Source: a virus (taxonomy: Duplodnaviria > Caudoviricetes). From it: a DNA stretch of 54,209 bases. The stretch spans positions 1 through 54,209 of IMG/VR virus record IMGVR_UViG_3300037458_000931, one strand, 5' to 3'. The position numbers were made by a program, and so were the translations under genes. The notes under the pieces are model-generated. The model saw nothing but the letters and a program-made list of their open reading frames with translations, had not been told where the DNA came from and did no database searches. Below are positions 35,116-54,142 of the stretch, in pieces (position 1 is the stretch's first letter; the number at the start of each line of letters is the position of its first letter).

Positions 35116-36368
35116 TTCTTAAAGTCCTCAATTAACACGTTATAAATGGGGATACTTCCTTTATATTCTGCAAAGGTTATATCTCCGGCTTGAATCATTG
35201 ATCGGATTATCTGCCCTACCTCGTGGGGCTTATGGGTCTTACGCAATTTTCTCTCCAGTTCAGCGTGAGTTATTGTACAATTTGCTTTGGTCTTGCTGTG
35301 TAATACCTGTTCGATTGAGTGGTGAAAGCCGTTTGACGTTATTAAGTCATCAAACAGTGCCGTAACATTTTTCTCAGACAAAAGCAAATATTCTAGCGCT
35401 TGATCGAAATGTTTTTCCTCCAGCATAAGTTCGTTTGACTCGGCGGCGGCACAGCATATGGCGATTTTGCTGAGGTGCAACGACCGCCGGACGTTGTAGT
35501 CTATGAATCGGGAGTGTTCAATCGCGCCGGGATTGTCAACGTGGAAAGCGTTTAACTTTTCTTTAAACCGTGTACTAAGTTTGTACTCCCCTGCCAATAA
35601 TGAAAGGGCGCGAATGTCTGAGATAATTTTTCCTTTTAGTGTTTGATCCACTGTCTCGTTGTTAAAGAAGGGTTTGCGTGTTAATTCACCCGCATTGCAA
35701 ATAATTAACCTGGCAGTGAAGCCCATTTGGAAAGCTTCCTCTGGTACAATCCGGGCAAACACCGCCGGCTGAGTTCCTAAAAGCATAGCTAAATGGGGGT
35801 TTTCGATCTTAACAGTGGATGAAGCACCCCGCCCCCGAACTCGCTCGGTGAAAGAGTTTTTACAATTATATAAGTCGTTAATGATGGAGATCATTTGAGT
35901 CTGGTACTCAGGCATGAACGCACCCAACTCCCCATTAACAACGTATAATGAGTGACAGTGGACTGTCTCTGGTTTCCCTCCGTGCTTGAATGTAAACGCA
36001 AGTCTTGATTCATCATCTGCCAGAGCGTCAATAAGACCTTTGGTTGATAAAGATTCCGGGGCGATGTTAACACCTTGCTGCTGCTCCATTTCCTCGGTAG
36101 CTGAAGATAATAAATCCCGGATGGTATTGATAACTAAATCTTTTCCAGATCCTGGTGCCCCACATAAAAGAATAAACAAGTTAGGAAATAATAACGGCAT
36201 AACAGGGTTAGTCTGGAACCAAACCCGCCGGGTTAATGCGGCGGATATGAGAGATAACCCTCCCCATTTTTTAAATATACTGTGTGCGTGTAAGGGCTTA
36301 ACGTATTCATCCCAAGAGGCCAGAAGGTTATCTGCTGTTCTGACGCTTTGGGGGATTTTACTGACCAC
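35112..36368 (-). CDS. P-loop NTPase, DUF3987-like putative replicative helicase
   Basis: Walker A GAPGSGKD, degenerate Walker B (YVVNGE), GFTARL arginine-finger-like motif, C-terminal winged-helix-like region; directly downstream of the polymerase. Confidence 0.65.
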   Translation of the reverse strand: MVSKIPQSVRTADNLLASWDEYVKPLHAHSIFKKWGGLSLISAALTRRVWFQTNPVMPLLFPNLFILLCGAPGSGKDLVINTIRDLLSSATEEMEQQQGVNIAPESLSTKGLIDALADDESRLAFTFKHGGKPETVHCHSLYVVNGELGAFMPEYQTQMISIINDLYNCKNSFTERVRGRGASSTVKIENPHLAMLLGTQPAVFARIVPEEAFQMGFTARLIICNAGELTRKPFFNNETVDQTLKGKIISDIRALSLLAGEYKLSTRFKEKLNAFHVDNPGAIEHSRFIDYNVRRSLHLSKIAICCAAAESNELMLEEKHFDQALEYLLLSEKNVTALFDDLITSNGFHHSIEQVLHSKTKANCTITHAELERKLRKTHKPHEVGQIIRSMIQAGDITFAEYKGSIPIYNVLIEDFKK

Positions 36369-36408
36369 ATTGGAATTTCCTTTAGTTGTTTTGCTAGTTT
36401 ATAGGCAA

Positions 36409-36439
36409 CACGAAACAGCCTAATAGTTTCATACATACG
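36409..36439. promoter_or_regulatory. Palindromic motif, copy 2
   Basis: CACGAAACAG-N5-TAGTTTCATA-CATACG in the gap between polymerase and NTPase. Confidence 0.55.
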
Positions 36440-38245
36440 TTACAACTTCCAACTTTGCCACCCGCCGGCCACCACTCGCGTTCGCCCGTCTAAAGGGTGA
36501 CTAATGCCGTTGGGATTGCTTTCGGACTTACGCCCTAAGTTCCATCCACTTTCCGCCTCCGCAGGTACATACCAGTCTCGTGTCTTTCCGCCGGGGGAGG
36601 TAAGGGTAATATGCTCCTCCATCTGCTCGTGCATTGTTTTTATAACCTGCTCTTCCAAGCTTTCCGCACAAGTAGTAACTAATTCGTCGTGCTTTGATAG
36701 TCGGATTACACCAGGGAATTTATCGCCCATGCTATGTAAACGTAAAAGCGCCCTGTTACAATAGTCCGCCGCAACAGATTGTGGCTCGTAAGCAACTGCT
36801 TCCCGAATTGTAGCGTCGTCATTAGGGCGACCGAAAAACCGGCGAGTTCTGCCAAGCATGGTAGTTATTTCACCGGTGGTTTGCACTTGCTCAGCCACCC
36901 ACCGATGCCACTTAGCAATCTCAGGGAACGCATCGAAAAACACTTCTTGATAATGCTCGATTAACTTAACCTCGATGTGGGAGTGCTTGCTCATTTGTGG
37001 TGGTTTGCCACAGTAAGAAGTTCCGTGGCCTAAAGTCTTGCTCACGTCCCGGCGGGACTTGCCTCGGTAAAACGGAGCGGAGGCAAGCTTCTTTGCAGCC
37101 TTGAGTAAATCCTTTGGGAAGGATCCGTGTTTGATACACCACTCGATCTTAAAATCTTCCGGCCACGGCAGGTCAGGCCACACCATTGAGGCAGCCAAGG
37201 AGTGAAGGTCTCCTGACTCAGTCCCGGCGATGTAGTTCTCAAGGCCGAATAAACGAAAACAAATTGCCGCGACTATACGGGACTCGATTTGAGCATAGTC
37301 GCATACGATAAACTTCTCTTTCGGCGGACTTACGAAAATGTGCCGGAGTTTAGGAGTTACATTCTGACCGTTTGAACCGAATCCTTGAGCGTTCTGGCGA
37401 GAAGCTAATCGCCCGGTTTCTGTAACCGCACCGAAAGATGATTTAAAAAGTCCATGCTCTAATTTGCAGTTGAGAAACCCGAGTGACTTTGATAGGTCGC
37501 TAATTGCAAGGCAAACGTGTGCAAAAGGTGCGGCTATGGTGGTGGCAAGTTTCTCTTCCCCTGAAGACTTAATTATTTTCTCAAGGGCTTCCCGATCAAC
37601 GGCAGGGGTGTAATCTCCCTTTACGTTTCGGGATTTGTACTCAGGTATACCGTGAGTTTTTAACCAGGGAGGAGGGATAAAGTATGGTAAGGCTGTGGTG
37701 TTGGCAGGGGAGCCAAAGAAGTGGTAGAACAGTCGGAGCTTTTGGGCAGGGGAGTTAGGATTGAATGGCTCGGAGAATTCCTTAATAGCCTTTTGGAATG
37801 TAACTAAAGCCTCTGGCGCAGCCTCTTTTAAAGCCCGGCGGGTTTGAAGAGGAAGCTCTAGCCACTCGGTCCAGGTTGTTGGTAAGTCTATGCCAGGGGC
37901 GTAAGGTGAAAATTCTAAAACAGCCATATTGCGATAATAATTAAAATACCCAATGGCTTCAAGCATCTGGTTAATAACGGCTGTTAATTGGACTTGTTCT
38001 TTAGAGAACTGGACAGCCATTTCCCGCCGGGCTGACTCATCGACAGGGAGGCCGGCGAAGGACATGCTTAAAAGGGGCGCTTGCAACTCCATCTCGAAGT
38101 TGTAAGTGGAAAGGCGATGCTCGTCCATGAGTGGTAATAACCCGTCTTTAATCTCGAACAGAGTTAAAACATCCAGCCCGGAATATAAAGCAAGCTTGTC
38201 GAAGGGTGATGAAGGGAGGGAGGTGGAGGTGTTGAGGATTTGCAT
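36440..38245 (-). CDS. polA: Family A DNA polymerase, polymerase subunit (starts at exonuclease motif III)
   Basis: TETGRLAS, motif A DYAQIESR, motif B RDVSKTLGHGTSY, motif C HDEL; N-terminal YSGLD matches Exo III. Confidence 0.92.
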   Translation of the reverse strand: MQILNTSTSLPSSPFDKLALYSGLDVLTLFEIKDGLLPLMDEHRLSTYNFEMELQAPLLSMSFAGLPVDESARREMAVQFSKEQVQLTAVINQMLEAIGYFNYYRNMAVLEFSPYAPGIDLPTTWTEWLELPLQTRRALKEAAPEALVTFQKAIKEFSEPFNPNSPAQKLRLFYHFFGSPANTTALPYFIPPPWLKTHGIPEYKSRNVKGDYTPAVDREALEKIIKSSGEEKLATTIAAPFAHVCLAISDLSKSLGFLNCKLEHGLFKSSFGAVTETGRLASRQNAQGFGSNGQNVTPKLRHIFVSPPKEKFIVCDYAQIESRIVAAICFRLFGLENYIAGTESGDLHSLAASMVWPDLPWPEDFKIEWCIKHGSFPKDLLKAAKKLASAPFYRGKSRRDVSKTLGHGTSYCGKPPQMSKHSHIEVKLIEHYQEVFFDAFPEIAKWHRWVAEQVQTTGEITTMLGRTRRFFGRPNDDATIREAVAYEPQSVAADYCNRALLRLHSMGDKFPGVIRLSKHDELVTTCAESLEEQVIKTMHEQMEEHITLTSPGGKTRDWYVPAEAESGWNLGRKSESNPNGISHPLDGRTRVVAGGWQSWKL

Positions 38246-38248
38246 TAG

Positions 38249-38443
38249 TTATTGCTCGTTAAATTTTGAATCTATTTCAATAATCTCAGCATCATCAAAC
38301 TCTACAATATTTACATAGCCAGCAGGCTCTCGGCTTTTATATGCTTCCGGCCATTGCCCTATATAAGGAACAGTCTTCCCGATAAGCTTTGAATACCACA
38401 TGTGGCTATCTTTAGCTTTTAATATTCGTAGCATTTTCATCAA
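38249..38443 (-). CDS. Small hypothetical protein between the two polymerase genes
   Basis: AAGGT RBS; 64 aa, MWYS...SREPAGYVNIV. Confidence 0.65.
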   Translation of the reverse strand: MMKMLRILKAKDSHMWYSKLIGKTVPYIGQWPEAYKSREPAGYVNIVEFDDAEIIEIDSKFNEQ

Positions 38444-38449
38444 TTTACC

Positions 38450-39529
38450 TTAATCGTTTTGTTTACTTGTCTCATTACGAATCCCTTTCCAACTCCGTTC
38501 GTCAAGGAAAATACTCCCTAAGAATCCTAAAGACTTTTCTAACTCAAGCGCCCACGCATGACTCATCTGCATGGTGTCATGAGTTATGTTCTTAACCCCG
38601 ATTTTCATTTCCTTAGCTAACCAGTAGGAATCATACTGCATACAATTCTGCCCGATCTTAGGCACATCAGATTCAAGTACAATCTTTACAAACCTCCATG
38701 CTTCAAATTCAGTCTTTGCATCCGGCCACCAGTTTACAAATTTCCCTGATTCTTTCCAAAAGAAAGGAACGTGCAGGGCATGAGTTGAGTCGGCGGCGAA
38801 AGATATTTCTGATATTTGACTATTACGTATTGTCTCAATATCAAAGGCAAGTAGCTCCGCCTGCGAACCGTACAGCTCCCACCACTTGTAAAGGTCTTCG
38901 ATTGAGGGTTGTGTCCATATCTCCCTAGACAGTGTTCTTACTTCAGGGTATTCGCTTTCACGAAGGGCTTTATGTAAATCCAGCACGGTCACGATTCGCT
39001 GGCTCCAGTTCCGAAGCACACTTGCCGGGTGAAAGGTAGGAAGCACCTTCCCGAAGGGTGTATCAACTACGTTTCCCCTTAATTTAGAAATACTTGGAGG
39101 CAGTCCCAAGGCCCATAATGCTGTATTACCTAACGTAACAATCACATTAGGCTTTAATTCCTTAAGCGTTTCGTGCAACTGAATAACGTGCGATTCGTAT
39201 TCCAGCTTAAGGTGGTGAATAGCGTTATCAATCCGCCGGGAAGGGAGTAAAGAAGACACCTCGCAAGTGTTAGGCTTTGCGTAAAAGAACTCCACGTTGT
39301 TTTCCGGCGGGCGAGCGTTGAACACGCTTAATAGCGGGTAGGGAAACTTGTTCCAGTAGCTCAACATTCTAACTGCGGAGCTAAAGTTGTAAGGTAGGAA
39401 CTGGCACGGATAGCCGGCGTGAAATAACATTCGAGCAAGCTCTTGGCCAGCGGCTCCGACGAATGGAGATTGAAGCCTGGCTTCTTGCTCACCCCAAGCT
39501 TCACCCACAAAGGCTATTTTAGTTGGCAT
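38450..39529 (-). CDS. Family-4-like uracil-DNA glycosylase fused to 3'-5' exonuclease motifs I and II
   Basis: VGEAWG..E...PFVGAAG, RPP, IVTLG..A and FHPA (UDG); FDIET (Exo I), GQN..YD (Exo II), HDTM. Confidence 0.85.
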   Translation of the reverse strand: MPTKIAFVGEAWGEQEARLQSPFVGAAGQELARMLFHAGYPCQFLPYNFSSAVRMLSYWNKFPYPLLSVFNARPPENNVEFFYAKPNTCEVSSLLPSRRIDNAIHHLKLEYESHVIQLHETLKELKPNVIVTLGNTALWALGLPPSISKLRGNVVDTPFGKVLPTFHPASVLRNWSQRIVTVLDLHKALRESEYPEVRTLSREIWTQPSIEDLYKWWELYGSQAELLAFDIETIRNSQISEISFAADSTHALHVPFFWKESGKFVNWWPDAKTEFEAWRFVKIVLESDVPKIGQNCMQYDSYWLAKEMKIGVKNITHDTMQMSHAWALELEKSLGFLGSIFLDERSWKGIRNETSKQND

Positions 39530-39784
39530 TTAATTCCAATATTCCTGTGAAGCATCCTCAAACCCTGTTTCATAGGCATGTTCTAAAGCTTCTTTAATCC
39601 AGGATAATTCTCTGAAAAATGTTTTGTCCTCTGGTTCAATGGCGTCAGACTTTAACATAACAGTTTCGCCGTAACACCTTACCCGGATATAAGATGCGTA
39701 TTGTTTGCCCACTTGTGGCATTGACTCTTGCTCAGCAGGAGATAAATCGTTAAAACCTTCGATTGTTACACTAAATTCATTCAT
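39530..39784 (-). CDS. Hypothetical acidic protein
   Basis: SDAIEPED..F.R.L.WI..AL..AY..G pattern; tight packing. Confidence 0.7.
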   Translation of the reverse strand: MNEFSVTIEGFNDLSPAEQESMPQVGKQYASYIRVRCYGETVMLKSDAIEPEDKTFFRELSWIKEALEHAYETGFEDASQEYWN

Positions 39785-40074
39785 GACTTAATTCTCCAAA
39801 TCGCAACCAGTCCCGCCCCGAATAGCCAAAGCGTTCCGGGGACTGGAATAGAATGTATCTCTCGCCCGCAGTCTTTTTCCGAACCGATGCAGGTGATATG
39901 AAAAAGCTTCGCCGGCGGAACTACGTGGGTGTCCACAGCACCGGCGGAACCCTTCTCACCGAGCTTGTACTTGGCGTATGTGCCGGCGCTCACATCCCAG
40001 TTATAAATAAACGTCCCGCTTACACCAAGGGTAAGACCGAGTGCAAAACCTTTTACAAACCTATACCGTTTCAT
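39781..40074 (-). CDS. PEP-CTERM/VPLPA-CTERM-type exported protein
   Basis: GGAGG RBS before ATG 40074; N-terminal signal/TM; C-terminus SIPVPGTLWLFGAGLVAIWRIKS (Pro motif, TM, basic tail). Confidence 0.7.
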   Translation of the reverse strand: MKRYRFVKGFALGLTLGVSGTFIYNWDVSAGTYAKYKLGEKGSAGAVDTHVVPPAKLFHITCIGSEKDCGREIHSIPVPGTLWLFGAGLVAIWRIKS

Positions 40075-40318
40075 TTTGCACCTCCGGCGTAACGTCTTCA
40101 AAAAACCACTTGTTTTGTTTTTCGCACCATCCGTAGCGGATAACTTTAAGTGTGTCTCCAGCCTCGTTATAGCAACGCATGTTGAACTGAAACAGCGGTT
40201 CGCGAGGCCAGCGGTATTCTACTTCAACCCCGGTTAAAATTTTTTCCAGTTGGAATTTTACTTTAATAGGGTCGGTGTCAGGTGCGTAAAGGATGTTGTC
40301 AATATTCATGGTTTTCAC
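40061..40318 (-). CDS. Hypothetical protein
   Basis: 85-aa ORF overlapping both neighbours. Confidence 0.55.
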   Translation of the reverse strand: MKTMNIDNILYAPDTDPIKVKFQLEKILTGVEVEYRWPREPLFQFNMRCYNEAGDTLKVIRYGWCEKQNKWFFEDVTPEVQNETV

Positions 40319-40647
40319 CTTGGATTGTAAACAGGCTTTTTAGTATTAAGCCATTCTTCATGGTCTTTATCAAGGTTGGGGTAAGGTATGTCGGTTGTTA
40401 CGACTGGTGGAGGGGGAGGAGGCAAGTTACTAATACTCCAACGGTGAGTGTGACTTCGCTGCTGTAAGTCTTTACTAAATACCAATCCTTTGCCACGAAG
40501 CCCGACAAGTAAACGCTTAACAGTAAGCACAGAAATTCCAGTTATTTCAGCAATTTCTGCTGACAGCAGTCCCGCCGGGTTTGCATTTAATGCGTCTATT
40601 ATAGCTTGCCTGTTATCAGCCCTTTGCTGTAATTGGATTTTGTTCAT
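40315..40647 (-). CDS. Winged-helix DNA-binding protein
   Basis: IIDAL...GLLSAEIAEITGISVLTVKRLLVGLRGKGLV HTH pattern with Pro-rich tail. Confidence 0.7.
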   Translation of the reverse strand: MNKIQLQQRADNRQAIIDALNANPAGLLSAEIAEITGISVLTVKRLLVGLRGKGLVFSKDLQQRSHTHRWSISNLPPPPPPVVTTDIPYPNLDKDHEEWLNTKKPVYNPR

Positions 40648-40650
40648 ACC

Positions 40651-42162
40651 TTAAAGTGCCACAATGGTATCCATAGAGTTAATGTAATTACAGGCATTTT
40701 CGTAAATACCTGCATCTTTTTCTAGTCCCACGACACGATTAGCCTTTAACCGATGGGCAGTTATTAAACTTGTACCTGAGCCACAAGTTGGATCAAGGAC
40801 GGAAGAGGAACTATCAACAAACATTTCGAAGAAATGATTAAGGATGTGGATGGGCTTTTGACTCCGATGGATGCGAGAGTTTGCTTCACGAGAGCCGTCT
40901 ATGGAAAGTGCGCGAGGAGCTACAATCTTACGATCACCGAAGGAAACAAGCATTGCGGTTTCGTAAGTACGCCGGCCATAGCGCTGAGGGTCAGGGACTA
41001 TTCCATCGCCGCAATGCCAGATCATTAAAAAAGGTTGAACGGTTCCACCTATCGCTTTAAAAAAGTCCTCAGTTTCCCGGCGGAAATTCTGAGAAAACCA
41101 AAACATTATGTGCGCTTGCGGGGCGATGATGTGGTTATTGTCTCTAAGGCAATTTAACAGCTTCCAATACGCATCACTTGAATCGTCGTAGTCACCGAGG
41201 ATGGTGTTGCTTACACCGGAGGTAAACTCGCCGGTGTTGAAGGAAATGCCGTAAGGGAAGTCGCAGTGGATAAAGTTAAACGGCTCGCCGGTGTAGAGGG
41301 GCGCCCAGGTTGTAAAGTCTTGGTTAAGAATAAGCTTGTCGGATAGTGAAAGTTCTTCTTCAGGCTCTTCGTACTCTTCGTAATCTATTACTTCGCCAGG
41401 TTTGGTGTAATACTTTGCACCAAGTGGCTTTGCAGCCATGGGTCCAGGCTTGTTGACAAGGGGTTTATCCGCCTTAGGCCGTGGCACCATTGAAGTAAGA
41501 GTCACGTCCTGGCCACGGCGGGAAGTGTATCGCTCGAGGGTTTGCGCGGCGGACTTTAAAGTTGGGGCCTCTTTAATAATTGTCTTTACGTCAGCCTCAG
41601 CGTCTTCGTCTGCGAACAAGCGCCAAACTCGTAAAGACTCGGTAACGGTTGCCTTGTGAATACCGATGAGGTTAGCAGTTTGCACAGCGGTCCAGTCTTT
41701 ATACTCGGATAAGCCCTTACAATAAATGTCGTAAATGGCTTTGGCTCGGTCTTGCCAGGGTAAGTCTTGACGCTGAGCATTTTCTATAAATTCAAACATT
41801 GCCAGGTCGGTGGAGGTGAAGTCAGAACCGAGCTGCGCCGGGATTTTATTCCAGCCTTGCCAAGAGTCTACTTGACAAGTGCAAATAGGGAATAGGGCGT
41901 CTCGTGCCTCCAGGGTATTGCTGAAGCCTGAGTAGTTACCATCGGTGGCTGCCCGTAAGGCTTTAACAGCAGTTAGCCGACGTTCGCCGGCGACTAAGTA
42001 ATTTGTGTCCTTGTCGATAAGGACGGGGGAAATCCACTGAGACCGTCCGATGGAAACGGCTAAGGATAAAACGGAATCGAATGTGAGTTCTGACCGTTGG
42101 CGAGTACTACGGTCTATAATAATGTCATCGACAAGGACTTGGACTAGGGTGTTTTTGAACAC
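40651..42162 (-). CDS. ParB-family domain (CTPase boxes plus HTH) fused to a beta-class amino-methyltransferase
   Basis: LVAGERRL and IENAQRQDL; HTH WTAVQTANLIGIHKATVTESLR; MTase CDFPYG, H.SQKP and VLDPTCGSGTS in beta order. Confidence 0.85.
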   Translation of the reverse strand: MFKNTLVQVLVDDIIIDRSTRQRSELTFDSVLSLAVSIGRSQWISPVLIDKDTNYLVAGERRLTAVKALRAATDGNYSGFSNTLEARDALFPICTCQVDSWQGWNKIPAQLGSDFTSTDLAMFEFIENAQRQDLPWQDRAKAIYDIYCKGLSEYKDWTAVQTANLIGIHKATVTESLRVWRLFADEDAEADVKTIIKEAPTLKSAAQTLERYTSRRGQDVTLTSMVPRPKADKPLVNKPGPMAAKPLGAKYYTKPGEVIDYEEYEEPEEELSLSDKLILNQDFTTWAPLYTGEPFNFIHCDFPYGISFNTGEFTSGVSNTILGDYDDSSDAYWKLLNCLRDNNHIIAPQAHIMFWFSQNFRRETEDFFKAIGGTVQPFLMIWHCGDGIVPDPQRYGRRTYETAMLVSFGDRKIVAPRALSIDGSREANSRIHRSQKPIHILNHFFEMFVDSSSSVLDPTCGSGTSLITAHRLKANRVVGLEKDAGIYENACNYINSMDTIVAL

Positions 42163-42186
42163 TTTTATGTACCTTTAAGAGAGTAA

Positions 42187-42213
42187 GGCCGGAGGAGTTA
42201 AAAACCTCCGGCC
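42187..42213 (-). terminator. Stem-loop after the SSB-like gene
   Basis: GGCCGGAGG-N9-CCTCCGGCC; weak U-tract on the - strand. Confidence 0.5.
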
Positions 42214-42221
42214 CGTAAGGG

Positions 42222-42815
42222 TTAAGCCTGGGTTACGGACTGAATCGTAAGGTTTGCCGGGCGAGTCGGGTCGTTCGGGTTAGCTTCATACCCAAACGTG
42301 GCGATAAACTTCTTACCCACGGTGTCTTCCAAAATAGTCCCAAGTTCTTCACCTTCAGGGTAGTTAAGACCAAGCACGTCAACAACAAAGCCCTGCTGGT
42401 CGCCGTTGTCAGAGCGCAAGTAAAACCGCCAGGCGTGCTTGTCAAGAATCCCGATTACGTCTCCACGCTCGTCAGTCTCGATGATAGGGAAGTTGACTGC
42501 AGAAACGCCGGCCATTTTCTGCTGCGTGTCACGAGAGGTGTAGGCGAACTGGAACTCGCGGGCGGTCCAGTCACCAAACTCGTTGAGCTTGGCAAGCTGC
42601 TCTGACTGTAAATCCGGGTTGGAATCGTCGTCAGCTTCGATACAGGAAACGGGGCGAATTGTAGGGACGTAAGCCAATCCATGAACGCCGGACTTTTTCC
42701 AAAAGAACGGAATCATGTCATAAGACGTGATAACGACTACGTAGTTGCCTTCAGGGAAGCGGGAGGGGGCTTTGAAAGAAGAAGCGTTTGTTTTCAAAAG
42801 ATCAGCGATTTTCAT
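42222..42815 (-). CDS. Putative ssDNA-binding (OB-fold-like) protein
   Basis: P...PEGNY.V.I N-terminus and VGKKF C-terminal strand typical of SSBs next to Sak4-like ATPases; call rests partly on context. Confidence 0.5.
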   Translation of the reverse strand: MKIADLLKTNASSFKAPSRFPEGNYVVVITSYDMIPFFWKKSGVHGLAYVPTIRPVSCIEADDDSNPDLQSEQLAKLNEFGDWTAREFQFAYTSRDTQQKMAGVSAVNFPIIETDERGDVIGILDKHAWRFYLRSDNGDQQGFVVDVLGLNYPEGEELGTILEDTVGKKFIATFGYEANPNDPTRPANLTIQSVTQA

Positions 42816-42844
42816 GGTTATAACCTGTTTGTTGGATATGGAAA

Positions 42845-42875
42845 CGTATTTATGAAACTGACTGGTTGTTTTGTA
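42845..42875. promoter_or_regulatory. Palindromic motif, copy 3
   Basis: CGTATT-TATGAAACTG-N5-TTGTTTTGTA upstream of the SSB-like gene. Confidence 0.5.
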
Positions 42876-42882
42876 TTGTCGT

Positions 42883-43764
42883 TTATCCTCTCAATTTAAA
42901 GTACTCAACAAGTGCCTTATCCAACGGGTAGCGTGACTCACACATTCCGTAGAAAGGTGTTTTGGTAATAATCCCTACGCGGGGTGTAGTGTAAACGTAC
43001 CGCCGGGATACTGCGCCCTTACCCTCGGAAGACGCCACGAGGAGATGATTCATGCGGGAGGGAAGTTTAACCCGCCCGGCTTTGCCGACGGAGATAGGAC
43101 ACATCTGCACGTCTACCAGTTCATCCACCACTTCCCCTTTGTCGTTGACTTGGGTAGTGGGTTTGTTAATCTCAATCGGATCAGCATGACCGGTTACGAT
43201 AACATGGCAGGGGAAGTCTGCACAAGCAAACATTAAAGACTCAGCAAGGTGCTGCGGGTCTTGGTAGTCTCTCCACTCAAGAGACTGATTTAACTTGCCG
43301 TTTAATTCCTGGGTGAAATTGATAATGGCCCGCACAGCGTGCGTGAAAGAATCAACAACTAAAATGGTCTTTTCGTTAAGGGTTGGAGACCATTTTTCCA
43401 ACTGCTTAATCGCTGTACTCCAGGCAGTTGCGGTGTTGATGCCGAGCTTTTTAACTGTGCGTTTGCCTTCGCGGGCGGACACCACGCTTTGCTCTTCGCT
43501 GCAGGGGCAAATGTCGTAATTCTCAACAAGAGCTTTATCGTGCTGCTCTTGAGTTATTAACCCTTCTTTAACAAACCGGGCGAGGGTGCTACGCACGACC
43601 TCTTCAAACTTGCTGTCGAAATCCAACACCCGCAGCTCGTATCCAGGGTTGTCTAAATACCCTGGGATACCTAAGGGGACGATTGAAGTGCTTTTGCCTT
43701 CGCCGGACTGCCCCATGAAGAGCATTTTTATTAACGGGGCTTTGGCAGTAGGAGATAGTTTCAT
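42883..43764 (-). CDS. AAA_24/Sak4-like ATPase (recombinase)
   Basis: GQSGEGKS Walker A, LDFD, LVVDSFT Walker B, HVIVTGH. Confidence 0.75.
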   Translation of the reverse strand: MKLSPTAKAPLIKMLFMGQSGEGKSTSIVPLGIPGYLDNPGYELRVLDFDSKFEEVVRSTLARFVKEGLITQEQHDKALVENYDICPCSEEQSVVSAREGKRTVKKLGINTATAWSTAIKQLEKWSPTLNEKTILVVDSFTHAVRAIINFTQELNGKLNQSLEWRDYQDPQHLAESLMFACADFPCHVIVTGHADPIEINKPTTQVNDKGEVVDELVDVQMCPISVGKAGRVKLPSRMNHLLVASSEGKGAVSRRYVYTTPRVGIITKTPFYGMCESRYPLDKALVEYFKLRG

Positions 43765-43931
43765 TTTTGGTTCTTTCTTTGGTAGGCTTCTTCCAGAAAG
43801 TATCTAACACCCTCAGTGTATGATACTTTGTCTACACCTATGGTGGCAAAATGCTCTTTAACAAACTCCCAAATCCTGTCAGGGAGTATGATAGAGCGCT
43901 GAGTTTTCTTTTCGCGCAGTGGGACTAACAT
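43761..43931 (-). CDS. Ribbon-helix-helix-like regulator (56 aa), absent from the ORF track
   Basis: MLVPLREKKTQRSIILPDRIWEFV...SYTEGVRYFLEE; ATGA overlap with the Sak4-like gene; promoter directly upstream. Confidence 0.6.
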   Translation of the reverse strand: MLVPLREKKTQRSIILPDRIWEFVKEHFATIGVDKVSYTEGVRYFLEEAYQRKNQK

Positions 43932-43982
43932 GGTATGAGGCTCCGGGCTGTGGGGGGAATAATGGTTTAATTTGACGGGGAT

Positions 43983-44036
43983 ATGATAACCCGGATTTAA
44001 TGGGATTGCAACAATTTTTTATGGATTGTTGCAATC
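43983..44036 (-). promoter_or_regulatory. Sigma70-type promoter with overlapping 12-bp inverted-repeat operator
   Basis: TTGCAA-17 nt-TATCAT on the - strand; GATTGCAACAAT-N9-ATTGTTGCAATC at 44004-44036 covers the -35. Confidence 0.7.
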
Positions 44037-44052
44037 AGCAATACGTTATTCT

Positions 44053-44265
44053 TTACAATTTATCCCGTTGCCTATGCACCGTTATCTCATCTATACCTAA
44101 GCACGTAATAGTAAAGCCGGCGGCATGTGTACCGTAGGTGTAATTAAGATAGCCTTCGTTGAACAGCTCTTCAAATAAGGGATATTCGTCTGCTTCGGGG
44201 GCGACAGGATTACGGGTTCCAATTAGGCGAGCTAGAATCATTCGGTGTTTAGGGGTTATAGTCAT
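44053..44265 (-). CDS. Small hypothetical protein
   Basis: 70 aa with L...GY...F.IT..G pattern (winged-helix-like). Confidence 0.6.
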   Translation of the reverse strand: MTITPKHRMILARLIGTRNPVAPEADEYPLFEELFNEGYLNYTYGTHAAGFTITCLGIDEITVHRQRDKL

Positions 44266-44274
44266 AAATACGCC

Positions 44275-45114
44275 TTATAAAAGTTTCGGCTTAACAGCAG
44301 TTATCGGTGGAGAGATAGTTCCAATCATCTCGAAGTCTTCTGCGAAAAAAGCATCTTTATCACTCCCGTTGTAAATCAGCCGGGGCGGGGCGGGATAAGA
44401 AATTTCAGGCATACAGCCAAAATTCAGTATCTGCCTTATCGCCTCTGTGTGGGAAGGTTCTATGTAAGTATGTGCATCTCCAAAAGTCCATAACATTTTC
44501 TCAGGGACACCCTCTGCTTGGGTACAAACCCATAGTAAAAAGGCCCACGACTGAATCCAGTTGTGTGGAACACCTAAAAGCATGTCCGCACTCCGCTGGT
44601 AAGAGTGCATAGAAATCCCACCGTCTTTGGACACGAAAAATTGCACTACAGTCGAATGACAGCACGCCGGCGTTCGAGGGTTGTTGTTTACCTCTTTGAT
44701 GAACGCCATTTTTACTGGGTTCCAGGCAGTAATTACGTGCTCACGGCTGAAGGGGTTATTGCGGAGGTTGTGTATTAAGTGCTTTATCTGGTCGAAGTTA
44801 AATGACCGGAATTGTTCACCATATCCGTTTAAGTAAAGTCCGTTGGGATTTAGCTGCCCGTCCCACCAGTCTAAAAGGTCGGAAGGGCAACGAGGTTTGC
44901 CACTTAAAAACCACTCCATCTCACGAATAGCTTTCTTCCATGCGGTGTGTCTTACAGTTACGAGGGGTGTTGCGTCGAAGGTTACTGTTGGGAGGGTGAA
45001 CAGCCGGCGGGAGGGGCCGTTTCGGGATTGAACCTCCTCGCCGGATTGGGAAATTCGCTCGAGGAGGGAGGTGTAGATTGTATCAGTTTTATTCACTTTG
45101 CTCAATCTCCTCAA
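44275..45114 (-). CDS. thyA: Thymidylate synthase (ThyA family), divergent; start uncertain
   Basis: REMEWFL, YGEQFR, TAWNP, CCH catalytic Cys, QF, YQRSADMLLGVPHN, GDAHTY. Confidence 0.85.
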   Translation of the reverse strand: MRRLSKVNKTDTIYTSLLERISQSGEEVQSRNGPSRRLFTLPTVTFDATPLVTVRHTAWKKAIREMEWFLSGKPRCPSDLLDWWDGQLNPNGLYLNGYGEQFRSFNFDQIKHLIHNLRNNPFSREHVITAWNPVKMAFIKEVNNNPRTPACCHSTVVQFFVSKDGGISMHSYQRSADMLLGVPHNWIQSWAFLLWVCTQAEGVPEKMLWTFGDAHTYIEPSHTEAIRQILNFGCMPEISYPAPPRLIYNGSDKDAFFAEDFEMIGTISPPITAVKPKLL

Positions 45115-45280
45115 TGGTGTTTTTGATTAACTCAATTAAGTATTTTGCTTCGGCTTTAGTGAATTGCATTTGGCTATAGCCAACTAACTCTACGTTTTCG
45201 CCGGCTTTACGGACTAAACAATCAGTAAAGGCGTTATTGCCAGAAGTGCAGGTTACAAATACGTTCGGGTTCTTAATCAT
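45089..45280 (-). CDS. Hypothetical protein
   Basis: 63-aa ORF in the operon. Confidence 0.55.
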   Translation of the reverse strand: MIKNPNVFVTCTSGNNAFTDCLVRKAGENVELVGYSQMQFTKAEAKYLIELIKNTIEEIEQSE

Positions 45281-45285
45281 AACAT

Positions 45286-45474
45286 TTATCTCTTGAGTAG
45301 GAAGCAGGTTCGTGGGCGAGGCTTTGCAGAGTCTGCTTCGATAATAGAAAGACCTTTGTAAGATTTGATAGCCGGTAGTATTACTTTACAAACCCGCTGG
45401 AAGTATAAAGGAACACCGTGGTCTGAAAACACCAGCCGGCTATCCAAATGCTCACAATGGTCACAGATTTTCAT
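45286..45474 (-). CDS. Small Cys-containing protein
   Basis: CxxC...C...C pattern. Confidence 0.6.
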   Translation of the reverse strand: MKICDHCEHLDSRLVFSDHGVPLYFQRVCKVILPAIKSYKGLSIIEADSAKPRPRTCFLLKR

Positions 45475-45475
45475 T

Positions 45476-45745
45476 TTAAATCACCGCCATATCAACAGCA
45501 CGATCAAAGTCCTCTTCGCTACCACGGTGGTCTAAGCATCTAGACACTACGAAATCTTCTAACCCTCCTGGTCCAGTATCAAATCCTGGATTAGCAATTT
45601 TACGTAGTTTTAGATAACGATTTGCATCAGATCGTAGTTTATCCATCTCAATTAACCGCTTTTCATCCTCAATAATTACTTTCAGTACACAATCAGATAA
45701 ATCAATAGCCTTTTGTAATACATCCATCTGTTCTCTATGGTTCAT
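45476..45745 (-). CDS. Hypothetical protein
   Basis: AGGAG RBS; DANRY..LR...DRAVD pattern common in small phage proteins. Confidence 0.65.
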   Translation of the reverse strand: MNHREQMDVLQKAIDLSDCVLKVIIEDEKRLIEMDKLRSDANRYLKLRKIANPGFDTGPGGLEDFVVSRCLDHRGSEEDFDRAVDMAVI

Positions 45746-45749
45746 TGAT

Positions 45750-46748
45750 TTAACTCCTACGACTTAACGGGTTCCAAGTACGCTTTTTAAAGCTCCCTTC
45801 CAAGAACATTTCCCGGCGGGCCGGCGGCTTGGCGCAGATCTCTCTAAAGTGGCAACCTGAGTAATTATTACAGGCTGTTTCGTTGGGCAAGAATACTCCT
45901 GTCCTGCAAGCGTCCATTGCCTGTTCAATCCAGATTTGTAAGTCTTGGATGTACTCGTTTATTTCCTCTAGGGAAAACGGTACGACTTGCCGGGCGAAGC
46001 GGGAGAAATTAACACCGAGCTGAATCCCGTCAATAATAACTCCATGCGCCGGAGGTAACTCGCTTGTTTGGTGAGCAATTAAATGGCAAGCAGTGGTGTA
46101 TAAAGCCATTTGAGTAGAAGGCTTGAATTGCTCAAAGAACCTGCTGTCGAGGGTGTACTTGGTGGTTTTGTAGTCGCAAACGTAAGTTTGTCCCTGCCAA
46201 GCAACTAACCGGTCTATGTGTCCACAGATGTAAACTTTTTTGGAATCGTAAAGCATGAAGGGGAGTTTGAAGTGATACTCAACAGCCGCTTTCCCGTCGG
46301 AGCGCTTTATAGTAGTGGCTTTATCTTCCCAGAATTGGTCCAAGTACCAAATGATAGACCGGACTAAAGTTTCCTTGGTACGAGCATTGTCACCCGGCGG
46401 AAGAGTCTCACCGAGAAGCCCGGCTAAGCGTGTGACGCGCATTAAGGATGTGTGTTTGTCTATACCTGACTCAACGAGCTGGTGCCAGGTTTGGAGAAGG
46501 GTGTGGAGGTGGATACCGAAGGCTAACGCAGGCGGAACGATCTTGGGGACATAGCCCTTTACTATTGTATAGAAATACTTTCGGGGGCAGGTTTTGAATA
46601 ACCCAATGGAGGTTGAATCCCAATAAAACTGGATGCCTTTTGAGAAAGAAGTGTTTTCGGATTGCTCTTCCTCAATAATGCCGATTGGAATGGAGTTGGG
46701 CGAAGGGTGGCCTAAAAACTCGTCGGTGAAGGGACTGTAATATAACAT
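45750..46748 (-). CDS. PD-(D/E)XK Cas4/RecB-like exonuclease
   Basis: CPRKY, GIHLH, GHIDRL, DYKT, QMALY and C-terminal C....GC....C; GAGGA RBS before ATG 46748. Confidence 0.85.
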   Translation of the reverse strand: MLYYSPFTDEFLGHPSPNSIPIGIIEEEQSENTSFSKGIQFYWDSTSIGLFKTCPRKYFYTIVKGYVPKIVPPALAFGIHLHTLLQTWHQLVESGIDKHTSLMRVTRLAGLLGETLPPGDNARTKETLVRSIIWYLDQFWEDKATTIKRSDGKAAVEYHFKLPFMLYDSKKVYICGHIDRLVAWQGQTYVCDYKTTKYTLDSRFFEQFKPSTQMALYTTACHLIAHQTSELPPAHGVIIDGIQLGVNFSRFARQVVPFSLEEINEYIQDLQIWIEQAMDACRTGVFLPNETACNNYSGCHFREICAKPPARREMFLEGSFKKRTWNPLSRRS

Positions 46749-46752
46749 AGTC

Positions 46753-46917
46753 TTAGTCCTCTGTAATAATAAGCCCAATTATAAAGCAAGCAAAGTTACT
46801 GAGCAAAAGAGCGGATATACCGATAATTGAATTGTTATCGGAAAATGCAGCCGCTGTAAGCAGGTTACTACTAATTAAAACCGCACAGCATGAGATTAGT
46901 TTAAGATACTTTTCCAT
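46753..46917 (-). CDS. Small two-TM membrane protein (54 aa), absent from the ORF track
   Basis: GAGG RBS; MEKYLKLISCCAVLISSNLLTAAAF...IIGISALLLSNFACFIIGLIITED. Confidence 0.6.
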   Translation of the reverse strand: MEKYLKLISCCAVLISSNLLTAAAFSDNNSIIGISALLLSNFACFIIGLIITED

Positions 46918-46925
46918 AATAACCT

Positions 46926-47129
46926 CTATAGTTTAAGCCCTTCAAACGCCAAGTCCTTTTTAGGCTCTTTAAGGACAACCTTGGCTGCAGGTACACGAGT
47001 ACGAGTCCCGGCAGCTTGCTCTTGGTTCCACCTGGCCCGCTGTTCCCGAAGTCCTTCAATTAGTTGAAGGATGTCATCTTCGTTCCACTCTTGTGCAGGC
47101 TTTGATAACAGGGTGTCAAGGTTTTGCAT
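46926..47129 (-). CDS. Hypothetical protein
   Basis: GAGGT RBS; 67 aa. Confidence 0.7.
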   Translation of the reverse strand: MQNLDTLLSKPAQEWNEDDILQLIEGLREQRARWNQEQAAGTRTRVPAAKVVLKEPKKDLAFEGLKL

Positions 47130-47130
47130 T

Positions 47131-47451
47131 TTACACCTCTACGTAAACGATTTGGTCTTCAGGTACGGAGTCGTGAGGGCCATGTAAAGCTAACATTGTA
47201 AGGTCGTCGATGAGGCATAATTGGTGGGAGGTTAAGATGTGCTTCACGCCGGGCTTGCCGAATATCCAAGCGGCCTCGTAAATCGGGCCGGTTAAGTCCA
47301 TTTTGCTTCCGTGGTACACTTGCCCGCCATTAACTACTTTGCGAATGAGGCGAATTGATAATACCTCAAGCTGTTCGTTTTCGAGTTCGTACTCGACAAG
47401 GATGGGGAATCTTTCGGATAGGAACTTAGTGTAAATTATTACGTTGCTCAT
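47131..47451 (-). CDS. Hypothetical protein
   Basis: GAGG RBS; 106 aa. Confidence 0.65.
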   Translation of the reverse strand: MSNVIIYTKFLSERFPILVEYELENEQLEVLSIRLIRKVVNGGQVYHGSKMDLTGPIYEAAWIFGKPGVKHILTSHQLCLIDDLTMLALHGPHDSVPEDQIVYVEV

Positions 47452-47640
47452 TTATAGCCTCACAGTGTTTATTGGCTTTTGTGCATAAAATATCCATTTA
47501 TCATCTTGCTTTACCGCGAGGCGTTCGCCGGCGGAAGTTGTCACGAGCTTAGCAGGTTCGTTAATGTTTAACACTGTAAGCTCGTTGGGCAATAACCGGC
47601 GAGCCTTGTACTTTTTGCCGTTTATTTTTACTGAGGACAT
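47452..47640 (-). CDS. Hypothetical protein
   Basis: Abuts neighbours; 62 aa. Confidence 0.6.
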   Translation of the reverse strand: MSSVKINGKKYKARRLLPNELTVLNINEPAKLVTTSAGERLAVKQDDKWIFYAQKPINTVRL

Positions 47641-47641
47641 A

Positions 47642-47842: not shown

Positions 47843-47856
47843 TTGAGGGAGCCTTT

Positions 47857-47887: not shown

Positions 47888-47895
47888 AATACGTT

Positions 47896-48144: not shown

Positions 48145-48183
48145 TTGAGTATACCTGTATGTAAAGTAGCAATCACATTGAAC

Positions 48184-53290: not shown

Positions 53291-53318
53291 ATTATATGAC
53301 AATGCAATGTATTGTCAA
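53291..53318 (-). promoter_or_regulatory. Consensus sigma70 early promoter
   Basis: TTGACA-16 nt-TATAAT with AT-rich upstream; TGACAAT-N7-ATTGTCA palindrome spans the spacer. Confidence 0.85.
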
Positions 53319-54016: not shown

Positions 54017-54064
54017 TGTTTCACGGGAAACAACTAGAAAATGGTAAATATTTCCCGTGAAACA
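54017..54064. promoter_or_regulatory. Two parS-like sites
   Basis: TGTTTCACGGGAAACA (15/16) and TATTTCCCGTGAAACA (14/16) versus the bacterial consensus TGTTTCACGTGAAACA. Confidence 0.75.
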
Positions 54065-54109
54065 ATTAGAAATCGGTTTAATGGTTTATTCTAGTAATAC
54101 GCAGGCAAT

Positions 54110-54136
54110 AAAAAACCCGCCTCGCGACGGGTTTTT
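54110..54136. terminator. Bidirectional rho-independent terminator
   Basis: AAAAACCCG-N8-CGGGTTTTT. Confidence 0.75.
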
Positions 54137-54142
54137 AATGGA

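Follow-up and report, generated by a model that had tools for sequence, protein, structure and literature searches.

Chromosomal ParB/Spo0J and Noc act as clamps gated by CTP, with parS or NBS as their loading sites, and the orphan adenine methyltransferases M.EcoGIX and M.BceJIII may carry a ParB-like N-terminus. Kaljevic et al. (PNAS 2025, PMC12704722), whose survey tested 50 proteins, catalogued proteins joining a ParB-CTPase fold to an N6_N4 methyltransferase (MTase; PF02195 + PF01555) as enriched in phages and without a known function. An earlier note on the DNA described here likewise held that phage ParB–MTase fusions occur without a known mechanism, in agreement with that paper, and no solved mechanism of such a fusion was found in the literature covered, most of it outside subscription journals. 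The ParB-like CTP switches HerB/YfjB, KorB, and BisD have non-partition roles (PMC13370423 and PMC13229309, both available in part), and in the ParB-dependent thymine dioxygenases of phages a ParB fold is coupled to a post-replicative DNA-modifying enzyme (PMC13229309). M.EcoGIX and M.BceJIII, in turn, are described as low-specificity, replication-linked enzymes of mobile elements (PMC7736820, available in part).

The window, that is, the whole stretch of 54,209 nucleotides of viral DNA that was analysed, encodes a protein of this general type. Its open reading frame of 503 residues, on the minus strand of the ORF list, begins with GTG, and the aligned homologues begin at the same MF(K/S)N start; the full-length homologues found by protein search are 37–85% identical to it, and an identical protein is encoded on a 66.8-kb contig. 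All the motifs quoted in the earlier note could be located, with GERR at residue 59, ENAQRQDL at 127, HKATVTES at 169, DFPY at 301, and DPTCGSG at 457. The gene, the parts of its product, and its two neighbors are as follows.

40651..42162, minus strand: fusion gene, ParB fold/HTH–linker–MTase (open reading frame, full-length homologues, and synteny).
41713..42162, minus strand: ParB N-terminal nucleotide-binding fold, residues 1–150 (profile matches, invariant residues, pLDDT 82–92).
41506..41712, minus strand: HTH DNA-binding domain, residues 151–219 (aligned to the HTH of Noc and ParB).
41362..41505, minus strand: disordered K/P/E-rich tether, residues 220–267, ~48 residues (pLDDT <50).
40651..41361, minus strand: beta-class DNA MTase domain, residues 268–503 (Pfam PF01555, invariant motifs, Foldseek).
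40315..40647, minus strand: small winged-helix (IclR/MarR-like) protein, directly downstream of the fusion gene.
42222..42815, minus strand: conserved 197-residue protein, directly upstream of the fusion gene and after the gene of a Sak4-like ATPase.

With the fusions of Kaljevic et al. the protein has in common both Pfam domains and their order, a phage origin, and the absence of an adjoining parA. In the available part of their paper, those fusions are strongly enriched in prophage regions, whereas the present family occurs in apparently lytic podophages and two MAG contigs; it is also distinguished by a 30-residue insert between boxes II and III and by DFPY replacing DPPY. As in HerB/YfjB, KorB, and BisD, the ParB N-terminal domain and HTH are joined to a different C-terminal module, although the latter proteins regulate transcription and, as far as the available parts of their descriptions go (PMC13370423, PMC13229309), have no enzymatic domain, and the dimerization domain of HerB has been shown structurally. 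The ParB of the thymine dioxygenase systems is described in the available part of PMC13229309 as a separate protein with a C-terminal dimerization domain and no obvious DNA-binding domain, whereas the ParB described here is fused, has an HTH, and is without the C-terminal dimerization domain. M.EcoGIX and M.BceJIII, which can be likened to the fusion by description, are plasmid leading-region enzymes active on ssDNA (PMC7736820, in the part available), whereas the fusion is phage-borne.

The N-terminal fold includes a box I-like RQR (21–23), box II GERR (59–62), and box III ENAQR (127–131), the last two being separated, according to hhalign, by a family-specific insert of ~30 residues (about 74–103). 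The match of the single sequence to Pfam ParB_N is weak (E 0.055, 14.0 bits vs. the cut-off of 26.3), and the orthologue from a complete related genome (G003) is above the cut-off with 26.6 bits. Compared with the PDB, the A1 profile of the fusion family matches Noc (7ng0) with E 3.5e-12 in two stretches, 5–69 and 104–209, and the family profile matches structures of Noc, Spo0J, and ParB with E from 3.5e-12 to 1e-4. The probability of the hhalign match between the family and canonical ParB is 97.5%, and Foldseek places the ParB module on ParB from M. xanthus (7bnk, 1.6e-6). In the conservation set of 38 homologues, which are 41–85% identical to the window protein, G59, R62, E124, E127, N128, and R131 are invariant, and E60 and R61 are kept in ≥90% of the sequences. 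The presence of both ParB boxes, claimed from the letters of the sequence, is thus borne out by the profile and structure matches and by the near-invariance of boxes II and III. Mean column entropy in the same alignment is 1.37 bits for the N-terminal domain, 1.34 bits for the MTase, and 1.93 bits for the HTH. Judged from these 38 homologues, the pocket motifs (GERR, ENxxR, and the Arg of box I) and the MTase motifs are under strong purifying selection.

The Arg of box I (R23) is kept (≥90%), and the position of the canonical catalytic Gln of QPR is occupied by Arg21 or by a gap, while the cytosine-contacting Gly of canonical ParB (GxxQP) aligns with Gln42 of the fusion; the roles of box I and C-motif residues are assigned here after the available part of PMC13229309. 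Since the Gln of box I is not conserved and the Gly is replaced, the pocket may bind a nucleotide other than CTP, or may not hydrolyze it. The nucleotide specificity of ParB folds is stated in the available part of PMC12704722 not to be predictable from sequence or by AlphaFold3.

As in chromosomal ParB/Spo0J and Noc, the N-terminal fold with boxes II (GERR) and III (ENxQR) is followed by an HTH, in the same order, but the fusion has no ParA partner and no C-terminal dimerization domain of ParB (no PF23552 match), the MTase fold instead coming after the disordered linker. In the model, helices of the HTH comprise residues 159–166 and 170–184, the second of which is the predicted recognition helix, and the structural residues W157, T162, G167, V173, L177, W180, and R181 are retained. 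Among the folded parts of the protein, it is this domain, with its recognition helix, that varies most. Canonical parS is contacted by K171, S172, R173, N178, G201, and R204 of Caulobacter ParB, of which R173 and G201 show absolute conservation (PMC7383237). In the hhalign alignment, K171, S172, R173, and N178 of the Caulobacter protein correspond to I168, H169, K170, and E175 of the fusion, and these positions are among the most variable in the 38 homologues, with P (9), H (9), R (8), and K (5) found at position 170. The SxGHAR motif, present in a ParB of another locus (L304), was not seen in the fusion sequence. The caveat attached to the original proposal, that the recognition helix is non-canonical, thus proved well founded.

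The tether contains 12.5% K, 16.7% P, and 10.4% E, compared to 4.8%, 4.6%, and 5.6% in the whole protein, so that both its composition and a pLDDT below 50 at 220–267 agree with the flexible K/P/E-rich linker noted earlier. It carries a semi-conserved (K/R)PGP motif, in which P241 is present in ≥90% of the sequences.

The MTase domain matches Pfam N6_N4_Mtase (PF01555) with 31.3 bits vs. the cut-off of 26.7, and its motif IV (DFPY, 301–304), which aligns to DPPY of 5hek, lies ahead of HRSQKP (432–437) and motif I (DPTCGSG, 457–463), the order of the beta class. Residues D301, P303, Y304, R433–K436, D457, T459, G461, and S462 do not vary among the homologues, F302 is kept in ≥90% of them, and the catalytic and SAM motifs are, as read from the sequence, intact. 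Pfam, motif order, and Foldseek all uphold the original description of a beta-class MTase with variant motifs. The best Foldseek matches are N6-adenine enzymes, led by M.BceJIV (7.3e-11) and followed by M1.HpyAVI, MboIIA, CcrM, and RsrI; the domain is only ~230 residues long, and the best fold match normalized by target length is the small M1.HpyAVI (TM 0.81–0.84). The fusion resembles these enzymes in fold (Foldseek E from 7e-11 to 1e-6), in the position of motif IV before motif I, and in the HxxQKP and DPxxGSG motifs, but it is only 12–19% identical to them and differs in the DFPY of motif IV and in the attached ParB module. An MTase motif beginning with Asp points to N6-adenine. On the strength of this motif and of its closest structural neighbors, the enzyme probably methylates adenine at N6. 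In the putative target-recognition segment, GIVPDPQRYGRRTYETA, P390, G396, R398, and Y400–A403 are invariant, and the segment is conserved in phages of 37% to 50% GC.

The fusion gene is a core gene of the replication/recombination module in an uncultured clade of SU10/GP4-like podophages, and it is syntenic in four genomes, namely the window and three relatives (G001, G002, and G003). The module comprises a PD-(D/E)XK exonuclease, the Sak4-like ATPase, the conserved 197-residue protein, the fusion, a UDG-like/exonuclease protein, PolA, and a primase-helicase. The 197-residue protein, 57–79% identical in the three relatives, gave no match in Pfam, PHROG, or NCBIfam, and the small downstream protein matches Pfam HTH_IclR (1.2e-4) and a MarR-type PHROG and has a homologue at the same position in G001. 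Of 591 candidate viral stretches, 575 contain the fusion family, whereas bacterial genomes, sampled once for each of 185,579 species, yielded it only in two short MAG contigs, a near-absence that fits a lytic lifestyle. Neither ParA, a second ParB, nor an integrase was detected in 89 scanned ORFs of the complete relative G003 (94 were called, of which three crossing locus borders and two small ones lay outside the scan), or by family search in 48 of the 77 ORFs of the window. Compared with ParABS systems, therefore, the window has parS-type sites and no ParA family in these two sets of ORFs. No near-identical phage was present in INPHARED (megablast, 24 kb), and by protein only MTases or ParB–MTases of 22–29% identity were found there, in Vibrio, Microcystis, and Mycobacterium phages. 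The search for tRNAs as a clue to the host gave none. Two weak hints to the host are that one short relative contig is labeled as a gammaproteobacterial MAG and that one ORF of the window contains a PEP-CTERM motif.

Further features of interest are listed below.

53291..53318, minus strand: sigma-70-type consensus promoter, 12/12, facing the early and replication genes (consensus match only).
54017..54032, no strand assigned: parS-like site 1, 15/16 to canonical (a parS half and a GGGAAAC variant half).
54049..54064, no strand assigned: parS-like site 2, 14/16 to canonical (inverted copy of site 1).
54108..54139, no strand assigned: GC-rich hairpin with A/T-run flanks, terminator-like on both strands (inverted repeat and RNA fold stem).

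The two parS-like sites, which had been recognized in the earlier note, are real: they have one and two mismatches, whereas 0.0007 sites with ≤1 mismatch and 0.017 with ≤2 are expected by base composition. They form the 22-nt arms of a dyad that is 86% complementary. The hairpin is positioned between the pair and a minus-strand ORF that runs off the end of the window, and the order of terminator and then parS is also seen in G002 and G003, where single perfect parS-type palindromes occupy the equivalent place. A parS-type site is thus found at the same relative position in all three near-complete genomes of the clade. The exact variant pair of the window had no match in viral contigs, but was present in five contigs of bacterial type. 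In one of them it lies directly upstream of a canonical parA–parB operon, the parB of which encodes ParB_N, HTH_ParB, and ParB_C with a GKSR...N helix, and in another it is ~1.4 kb from dnaA; the spacers of the bacterial pairs, 12–16 nt long, are unrelated. Chromosomal ParB of P. aeruginosa binds both GTTCCAC and GTTTCAC half-sites, according to the available part of PMC10419367. An exact scan of viral contigs with TGTTNCACGTGNAACA was uninformative, with at least 126 stretches matching, which is about the chance level for 14 specified bases, none of the 78 examined loci being from the clade of the fusion. No account of host-type parS on lytic phages was found in the literature covered, again mostly without subscription journals.

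The reading that we prefer, and to which we give roughly even chances, is that the fusion is an NTP-gated, DNA-tethered protective MTase that operates independently of canonical parS, and that the separate host-type parS is read by host ParB. The enzyme would methylate replicating phage DNA, likely at adenine N6 and in a short or relaxed motif, thereby blunting host restriction. The ParB module would bind an NTP, with CTP being plausible and the base not predictable, and its HTH would hold the enzyme on DNA, so that long stretches could be modified efficiently. Possibly the module is a dimeric clamp, one end of which would be closed by the MTase domains, and its loading would probably not need canonical parS, as has been proposed for clamp-like loading in the HerB/YfjB group in the available part of PMC13370423. 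The same source describes HerB/YfjB as ParB-like clamps that dimerize otherwise than by the ParB C-terminal domain, a precedent for an alternative dimerization module. Finally, the parS-like pair (54017–54064) would be an accessory, host-type centromere element, more likely bound by the chromosomal ParB of the host. Some beta-class MTases are known as dimers. Dimerization of the fusion through its MTase domain is, with regard to these enzymes, only an analogy.

The location of the gene within a replication/recombination module, near the Sak4-like annealing ATPase and the 197-residue protein, could also indicate that the ParB half is not a clamp but a regulatory or targeting module, serving in nucleotide sensing, oligomerization, or recruitment to ssDNA or replicating DNA, with the MTase acting at forks in the manner of the plasmid enzymes M.EcoGIX and M.BceJIII. 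The (K/R)PGP motif of the tether could then serve as a docking peptide, and the fusion has no ParB C-terminal dimerization domain; Fomenkov et al. 2020 (PMC7736820) describe MTases of low specificity whose activity is confined to single strands and which are coupled to Pol I. The ParB of a related phage system, furthermore, activates a DNA-modifying enzyme although its NTP-binding residues are dispensable (PMC13229309), which also weakens the assumption of NTP gating in the preferred reading. We nevertheless consider a non-clamp role unlikely, in view of the near-invariant GERR and ENxxR, which argue that nucleotide binding matters, and of the complete HTH, the structural residues of which suggest binding of dsDNA.

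In the model put forward in the earlier note, a CTP-gated sliding clamp nucleates at parS of the phage, spreads, and methylates processively in cis, conferring self-specific protection. The part of this model that concerns architecture stands, with a ParB fold, HTH, long flexible tether, and intact MTase all present and with the pocket motifs conserved, and it is also favored by the position of the parS-type site, which heads the early region just past the terminator, as well as by chromosomal ParB and Noc being the nearest relatives of the ParB module. Its link to parS and the marking of self in cis are not supported by the comparison of genomes, although the parS-type site in all three near-complete genomes leaves a link to the fusion some probability. 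Not only do the residues at the parS-contact positions vary freely in the family, but helix and site do not co-vary: the site of G003 is of the perfect GTTTCAC type and that of G002 of the GTTCCAC type, although their recognition helices are nearly identical, whereas the window and G003 have a half-site in common and different recognition helices. A recognition helix almost identical to that of the window is found in L219, the 20.6-kb locus of which has no site with ≤2 mismatches. None of the 26 more distant family records (33–37% identical members, G002 and G003 aside) contains an exact parS and one has a match with one mismatch, the reversed control pattern being matched in 3 of 28 records; none of the six partial contigs of the clade with ≥7 kb upstream of the helicase has a site with ≤2 mismatches, although these are fragments, and the site could be elsewhere. 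The cassette of a 175-residue gene and terminator that precedes parS in G002 and G003 is present without parS in L224 and L222. In bacteria, moreover, the same variant pair adjoins canonical parAB and lies near dnaA, and to a strictly lytic phage the sparing of host DNA would be of little use. Taken as a whole, the model appears decidedly unlikely.

A reading that we hold to be quite improbable retains the host-type parS of the phage as the loading site. It envisages a nucleotide-gated sliding-clamp MTase, in which two ParB legs would shut around the DNA with an MTase dimer at the opposite end of the ring, and which would methylate the phage chromosome processively in cis after loading either directly or via co-assembly with host ParB clamps nucleating at parS.

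Instead of being a protein-binding centromere, the pair might represent the arms of a cruciform, or of a stem-loop transcribed as a small RNA or attenuator, between a rightward promoter-like site and the terminator. The sites are inverted copies with the same asymmetric center, in which the change of T to G in site 1 is matched by a change of A to C in site 2, so that complementarity between the sites is kept while the symmetry of each is broken. In the fold of the RNA of 53985–54145 the sites pair as a perfect 14-bp stem, and the terminator hairpin comes next (z = -2.8; an equally good fold is reached by 2 of 200 shuffles). Transcription could start from a promoter-like site on the plus strand (53948–53977, 10/12 with TG), but the number of promoter-like sites in the region is no higher than in shuffles. 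The single perfect palindromes of G002 and G003 would be unable to form such a stem, the inverted pair with unrelated spacers occurs at bacterial parAB and dnaA, where parS is expected, and nothing credible in Rfam matches 52300–54209 (best E 0.45), which together make this interpretation very improbable.

Equally, it is very unlikely that the MTase serves regulation internal to the phage (the timing of transcription, replication, or packaging, cf. Dam in some phages) rather than protection from restriction. Conservation of GIVPDPQRYGRRTYETA across such a range of GC content, presumably in different hosts, would accord better with a target intrinsic to the phage than with imitation of particular restriction–modification systems of hosts, but it would suit a protective enzyme of broad specificity equally well. 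Avoidance of GATC and of several 6-bp palindromes persists in the window, indicating that methylation does not relieve all restriction pressure. On the other hand, no conserved dispersed motif common to the clade was found, and protection is the most frequent role of orphan MTases in phages.

The GC hexamer and palindromes as a docking site of the fusion can be rejected, since their enrichment is missing in G002 and G003, the enriched palindromes differ between G001 and L219 (GGCCGGCC vs. CCCGNCGGG), which have the same recognition helix, and the sites are mostly intragenic and without an extended dyad. The enrichment itself, reported in the earlier note, is real in the window, with CGCCGG occurring 59 times and CCGGCG 58 times compared to ~12 each expected from a dinucleotide Markov model, but with its absence in these two relatives it is not a conserved partner of the fusion. 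The five-site palindrome named there as an alternative could not be identified, as no palindrome of ≥10 nt occurs five times; CGCCGGCG is present 11 times in the window, CCCGNCGGG 14 times, GCTGCAGC five times, and TTCGCCGGCG five times on the plus strand. No dispersed family of long (≥16 bp) quasi-palindromes was seen in the window, G001, or G003.

Fusions of a ParB fold with an MTase are among the commonest uses that phages make of the CTP-switch fold. The family described here provides a good test case, with 575 viral stretches, a compact protein of 503 residues, and invariant pocket motifs, and its origin in lytic phages allows a role in partition to be set aside. Since parS is decoupled from the fusion in the comparison of genomes, it should not be taken for granted that the fusion, if it has a loading site at all, loads at parS. 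At the same time, three related lytic podophages carry a bacterial-type chromosomal parS without ParA or a canonical ParB, which suggests that phages may draw host ParB to their DNA and, by way of ParB, SMC or ParA as well. Should a clamp MTase loaded at parS prove true after all, it would be, among known enzymes, the first to travel on a clamp of the ParB type.

The linear IMG/VR virus record, estimated to be 80% complete, is divided by gene calls into two arms, and no convincing genes are found in the 1.7 kb beyond the second of them.

Window 1-34045, + strand, structural arm
Window 34042-52481, − strand, replication and early arm
Window 40651-42162, − strand, fusion gene, an ORF of 503 aa with a GTG start

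The start residue of the fusion protein is the same in its homologues, and the synteny of the gene is kept in three related viral contigs, G001 (homologue 67% identical), G002 (54% identical, contig 97% complete), and G003 (50% identical, complete, with terminal repeats). The order comprises a UvrD-type helicase, a PD-(D/E)XK exonuclease, a Sak4-like ATPase, a conserved 197-aa protein, and the fusion gene, followed by a UDG-like/exonuclease gene, PolA, a primase-helicase, and then a giant virion protein. G003 encodes an SU10-type portal and adaptor, as well as a GP4-type fibre protein, and neither the 89 ORFs scanned in G003 nor the 48 scanned in the window include a ParA, a second ParB, or an integrase. 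The fusion gene is one of the core genes in the replication module of a podophage clade that appears to be strictly lytic. Elsewhere in the window, a 3155-aa ORF (24578-34045, + strand) contains a lysozyme-like segment and matches giant phage proteins (phrog_14770 at 1e-85), with counterparts of 37-70% identity in G001, G002, and G003. A 106-aa ORF (39781-40101, − strand) ends with a PEP-CTERM-like motif (Pfam E 3e-4), a weak hint at a Gram-negative host that might possess an exosortase system.

The fusion protein belongs to an already known kind. Among 8000 candidates scored in a large protein database, 2118 matched at E ≤0.001, and most of the 120 matches listed are about 500 aa long and carry both Pfam domains. 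A relative is encoded in 575 of 591 candidate stretches of viral contigs, and by only two short MAG contigs in a set of one genome per species for 185,579 bacterial and archaeal species. The ParB-methyltransferase ORF described in the earlier note is confirmed, with all five of its motifs in place (GERR at residue 59, ENAQRQDL at 127, HKATVTES at 169, DFPY at 301, and DPTCGSG at 457), and the domain evidence gives a ParB fold, an HTH, a flexible P/K/E-rich linker, and a beta-class methyltransferase. In single-sequence Pfam searches the C-terminal N6_N4_Mtase exceeds the cut-off and ParB_N reaches only E 0.055. A1, an alignment of 38 full-length homologues (41-85% identity to the window protein), gives a profile that aligns with Noc at E 3.5e-12 over two segments, 5-69 (the N-terminal fold) and 104-209 (box III and the HTH), with further matches to Spo0J and to the ParB proteins of H. 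pylori and M. xanthus; hhalign places the family against a canonical ParB from a bacterial contig with 97.5% probability. In an AlphaFold2 model (mean pLDDT 82, pTM 0.62), residues 1-219 and 268-500 form two confident bodies, and the stretch that links them (220-267) stays below pLDDT 50 and is enriched in P, K, and E. Foldseek on this predicted model matches the N-terminal body to ParB and Noc and groups the C-terminal body with beta-class N6-adenine methyltransferases (M.BceJIV at 7e-11, M1.HpyAVI with a target-normalised TM of 0.81-0.84, MboIIA, CcrM, and RsrI), N4-cytosine enzymes ranking slightly lower.

Invariant residues in A1 include G59 and R62 of GERR and E124, E127, N128, and R131 of box III, as well as D301, P303, and Y304 of motif IV, R433-K436, and D457, T459, G461, and S462 of motif I. 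Column entropy averages 1.37 bits over the N-terminal fold and 1.34 over the methyltransferase, so strong constraint acts on the nucleotide pocket and on the catalytic centre; in the HTH and the linker the average rises to 1.93 and 2.36 bits. The residue at position 170 may be P, H, R, or K, and that at position 175 E, K, or R. Judged by the alignment, the DNA-reading surface is not under strong constraint. Where canonical ParB has the Gln of QPR, the family has Arg21 or a gap; Gln42 aligns with the Gly of the canonical GxxQP. We write NTP rather than CTP since, in the work of Kaljevic et al. (PMC12704722), ATP or GTP was bound by some ParB folds and nucleotide specificity could not be predicted. 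Unlike canonical ParB and Noc, the family has roughly 30 extra residues inserted between boxes II and III (about 74-103, window 41854-41943, by hhalign), with a largely conserved CTC...SW...W motif and an invariant W104. The disordered tether (220-267, window 41362-41505) carries a semi-conserved (K/R)PGP motif, possibly a peptide on which a partner docks; P241 is kept in at least 90% of the 38 homologues.

The following parS-type sites are present in the window and its relatives.

Window 54017-54032, parS-like site, one mismatch to the canonical 16-mer
Window 54049-54064, parS-like site, two mismatches to the canonical 16-mer
G003:C1:49105-49120, perfect canonical parS (locus L081)
G002:C1:60478-60491, perfect 14-bp palindrome of the GTTCCAC type (locus L088/L089)

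With expected window counts of 0.0007 at the one-mismatch level and 0.017 at the two-mismatch level, the two window sites pointed out earlier are real. In all three phages the site lies at the head of the early region, directly after a terminator-like hairpin, with half-sites that vary between GTTTCAC, GTTCCAC, and a CACGGG variant. Three related lytic podophages carry a chromosomal-type parS with no encoded ParA or canonical ParB. The window also has a perfect sigma-70 consensus promoter directed toward the early genes (53291-53318, − strand; TTGACA, 16 nt, TATAAT), as well as AT-rich direct repeats and G-rich repeats within 52.5-54.2 kb, among them GGTTCCGGGGCG, present twice there and four times genome-wide.

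The sites do not track the fusion protein. Positions 170 and 175, which vary among the homologues, correspond to the canonical parS contacts R173 and N178, and R173 is absolutely conserved in canonical ParB according to PMC7383237. The recognition helices of G002 (GLDHSSVAKCLKLW) and G003 (GLDHSTVAKYLKVW) are nearly alike, yet their half-sites differ, and G003 shares its half-site with the window while the helices differ. An exact parS was found in 2 of 28 family genomes scanned, only G002 and G003; one of the remaining 26 has a one-mismatch match, and a reversed control pattern gave 3 of 28. A helicase-anchored search yielded 12 clade loci. Six of them, all fragments, extend 7-10 kb upstream, and parS at ≤2 mismatches is found in none of the six. 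A homologous gene and terminator precede parS in G002 and G003 (34% identity between the two proteins).

G003:C1:48537-49064, 175-aa gene with no known family
G002:C1:59708-60232, 175-aa gene with no known family

Two partial clade loci, L224 (gene 5336-5839) and L222 (gene 1830-2255), have this gene and a terminator and no parS. The equivalent place in the window holds the stop, at about 54165, of a − strand ORF that continues past the window end at 54209. While the identity of the protein stands, the proposal that it loads at parS and methylates phage DNA in cis is not supported by these comparisons, in which the sites follow neither the helix nor the family, exact parS occurring in only 2 of 28 genomes and in none of six partial loci.

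The GC-hexamer enrichment reported earlier holds, with 59 copies of CGCCGG and 58 of CCGGCG against about 12 expected. CGCCGGCG occurs 11 times (about 1 expected) and CCCGNCGGG 14 times (0.5 expected), and the over-representation of short GC-rich palindromes is 20- to 30-fold (for example at 566, 14914, 25168, 36224, 37048, 41985, 48215, and 51093). All but two of the 14 CCCGNCGGG sites fall in the 34-54 kb arm, for the most part within genes; the GC sites of the window are mostly intragenic, with no extended dyad, and no dispersed family of long quasi-palindromes was found. We rejected these motifs as a conserved partner of the fusion, as the enrichment is not shared by G002 or G003, and as the partial locus L219 has CCCGNCGGG in common with the window whereas G001, despite its L219-type recognition helix, is enriched in GGCCGGCC instead. 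Other palindromes are under-represented in the window, namely GATC (129 against 198 expected), likewise GGCC and CGCG, as well as GTTAAC (3 against 20) and AACGTT (1 against 13), a depletion suggesting that restriction sites are avoided even though the phage has a methyltransferase of its own.

The fusion protein, with its established domain composition, intact motifs, and flexible tether, and its place in the replication module of lytic phages, would methylate replicating phage DNA, probably at adenine N6, for protection. Its ParB module, presumably gated by a nucleotide, may tether or clamp the enzyme on DNA, and its preference for particular sequences would be slight or variable. For a clamp, a second dimer interface would be needed. 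Several beta-class methyltransferases are dimers. Because of this, and because HerB (PMC13370423) shows that dimerisation of ParB legs can rely on a module foreign to ParB, the methyltransferase domain might provide one.

As to the parS-type site itself, metagenome contigs were searched for the exact window pair, for which chance matches are negligible because 28 bases are specified. Five bacterial-type contigs (GC 53-73%), none with protein similarity to the phage of the window, contain it.

L304:2885-2975, exact pair
L303:190-290, exact pair
L301:7228, exact pair
L302:10003, exact pair
L305:885, exact pair

The spacers inside the bacterial inverted pairs are 12-16 nt long and unrelated. In L304, the pair and a third copy lie directly upstream of parA and a parB gene, whose product combines the domains ParB_N, HTH_ParB, and ParB_C with a recognition helix of the canonical GKSR...N form, and L303 has three copies about 1.4 kb from dnaA. 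These contexts identify the asymmetric CACGGG inverted pair of the window as a natural chromosomal form of parS, the halves of which look like a mixture of parS-type and Noc-site-type letters. They also favour a protein site over an RNA stem-loop, which we consider improbable: the two window sites are inverted copies that would form a perfect 14-bp stem, with a terminator after it and a promoter-like site before it, but G002 and G003 have single palindromes in its place, as expected of a protein site. In P. aeruginosa, a chromosomal ParB binds both half-site types found in the phages (PMC10419367). The simplest reading is that the site is an accessory centromere element of host type, carried by these phages and read by host ParB. 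As to its role, we can only guess at recruitment of ParB, SMC, or ParA, positioning, titration, or a carrier state. A host-type parS on lytic phages is, as a by-product of this analysis, more unexpected than the fusion protein.
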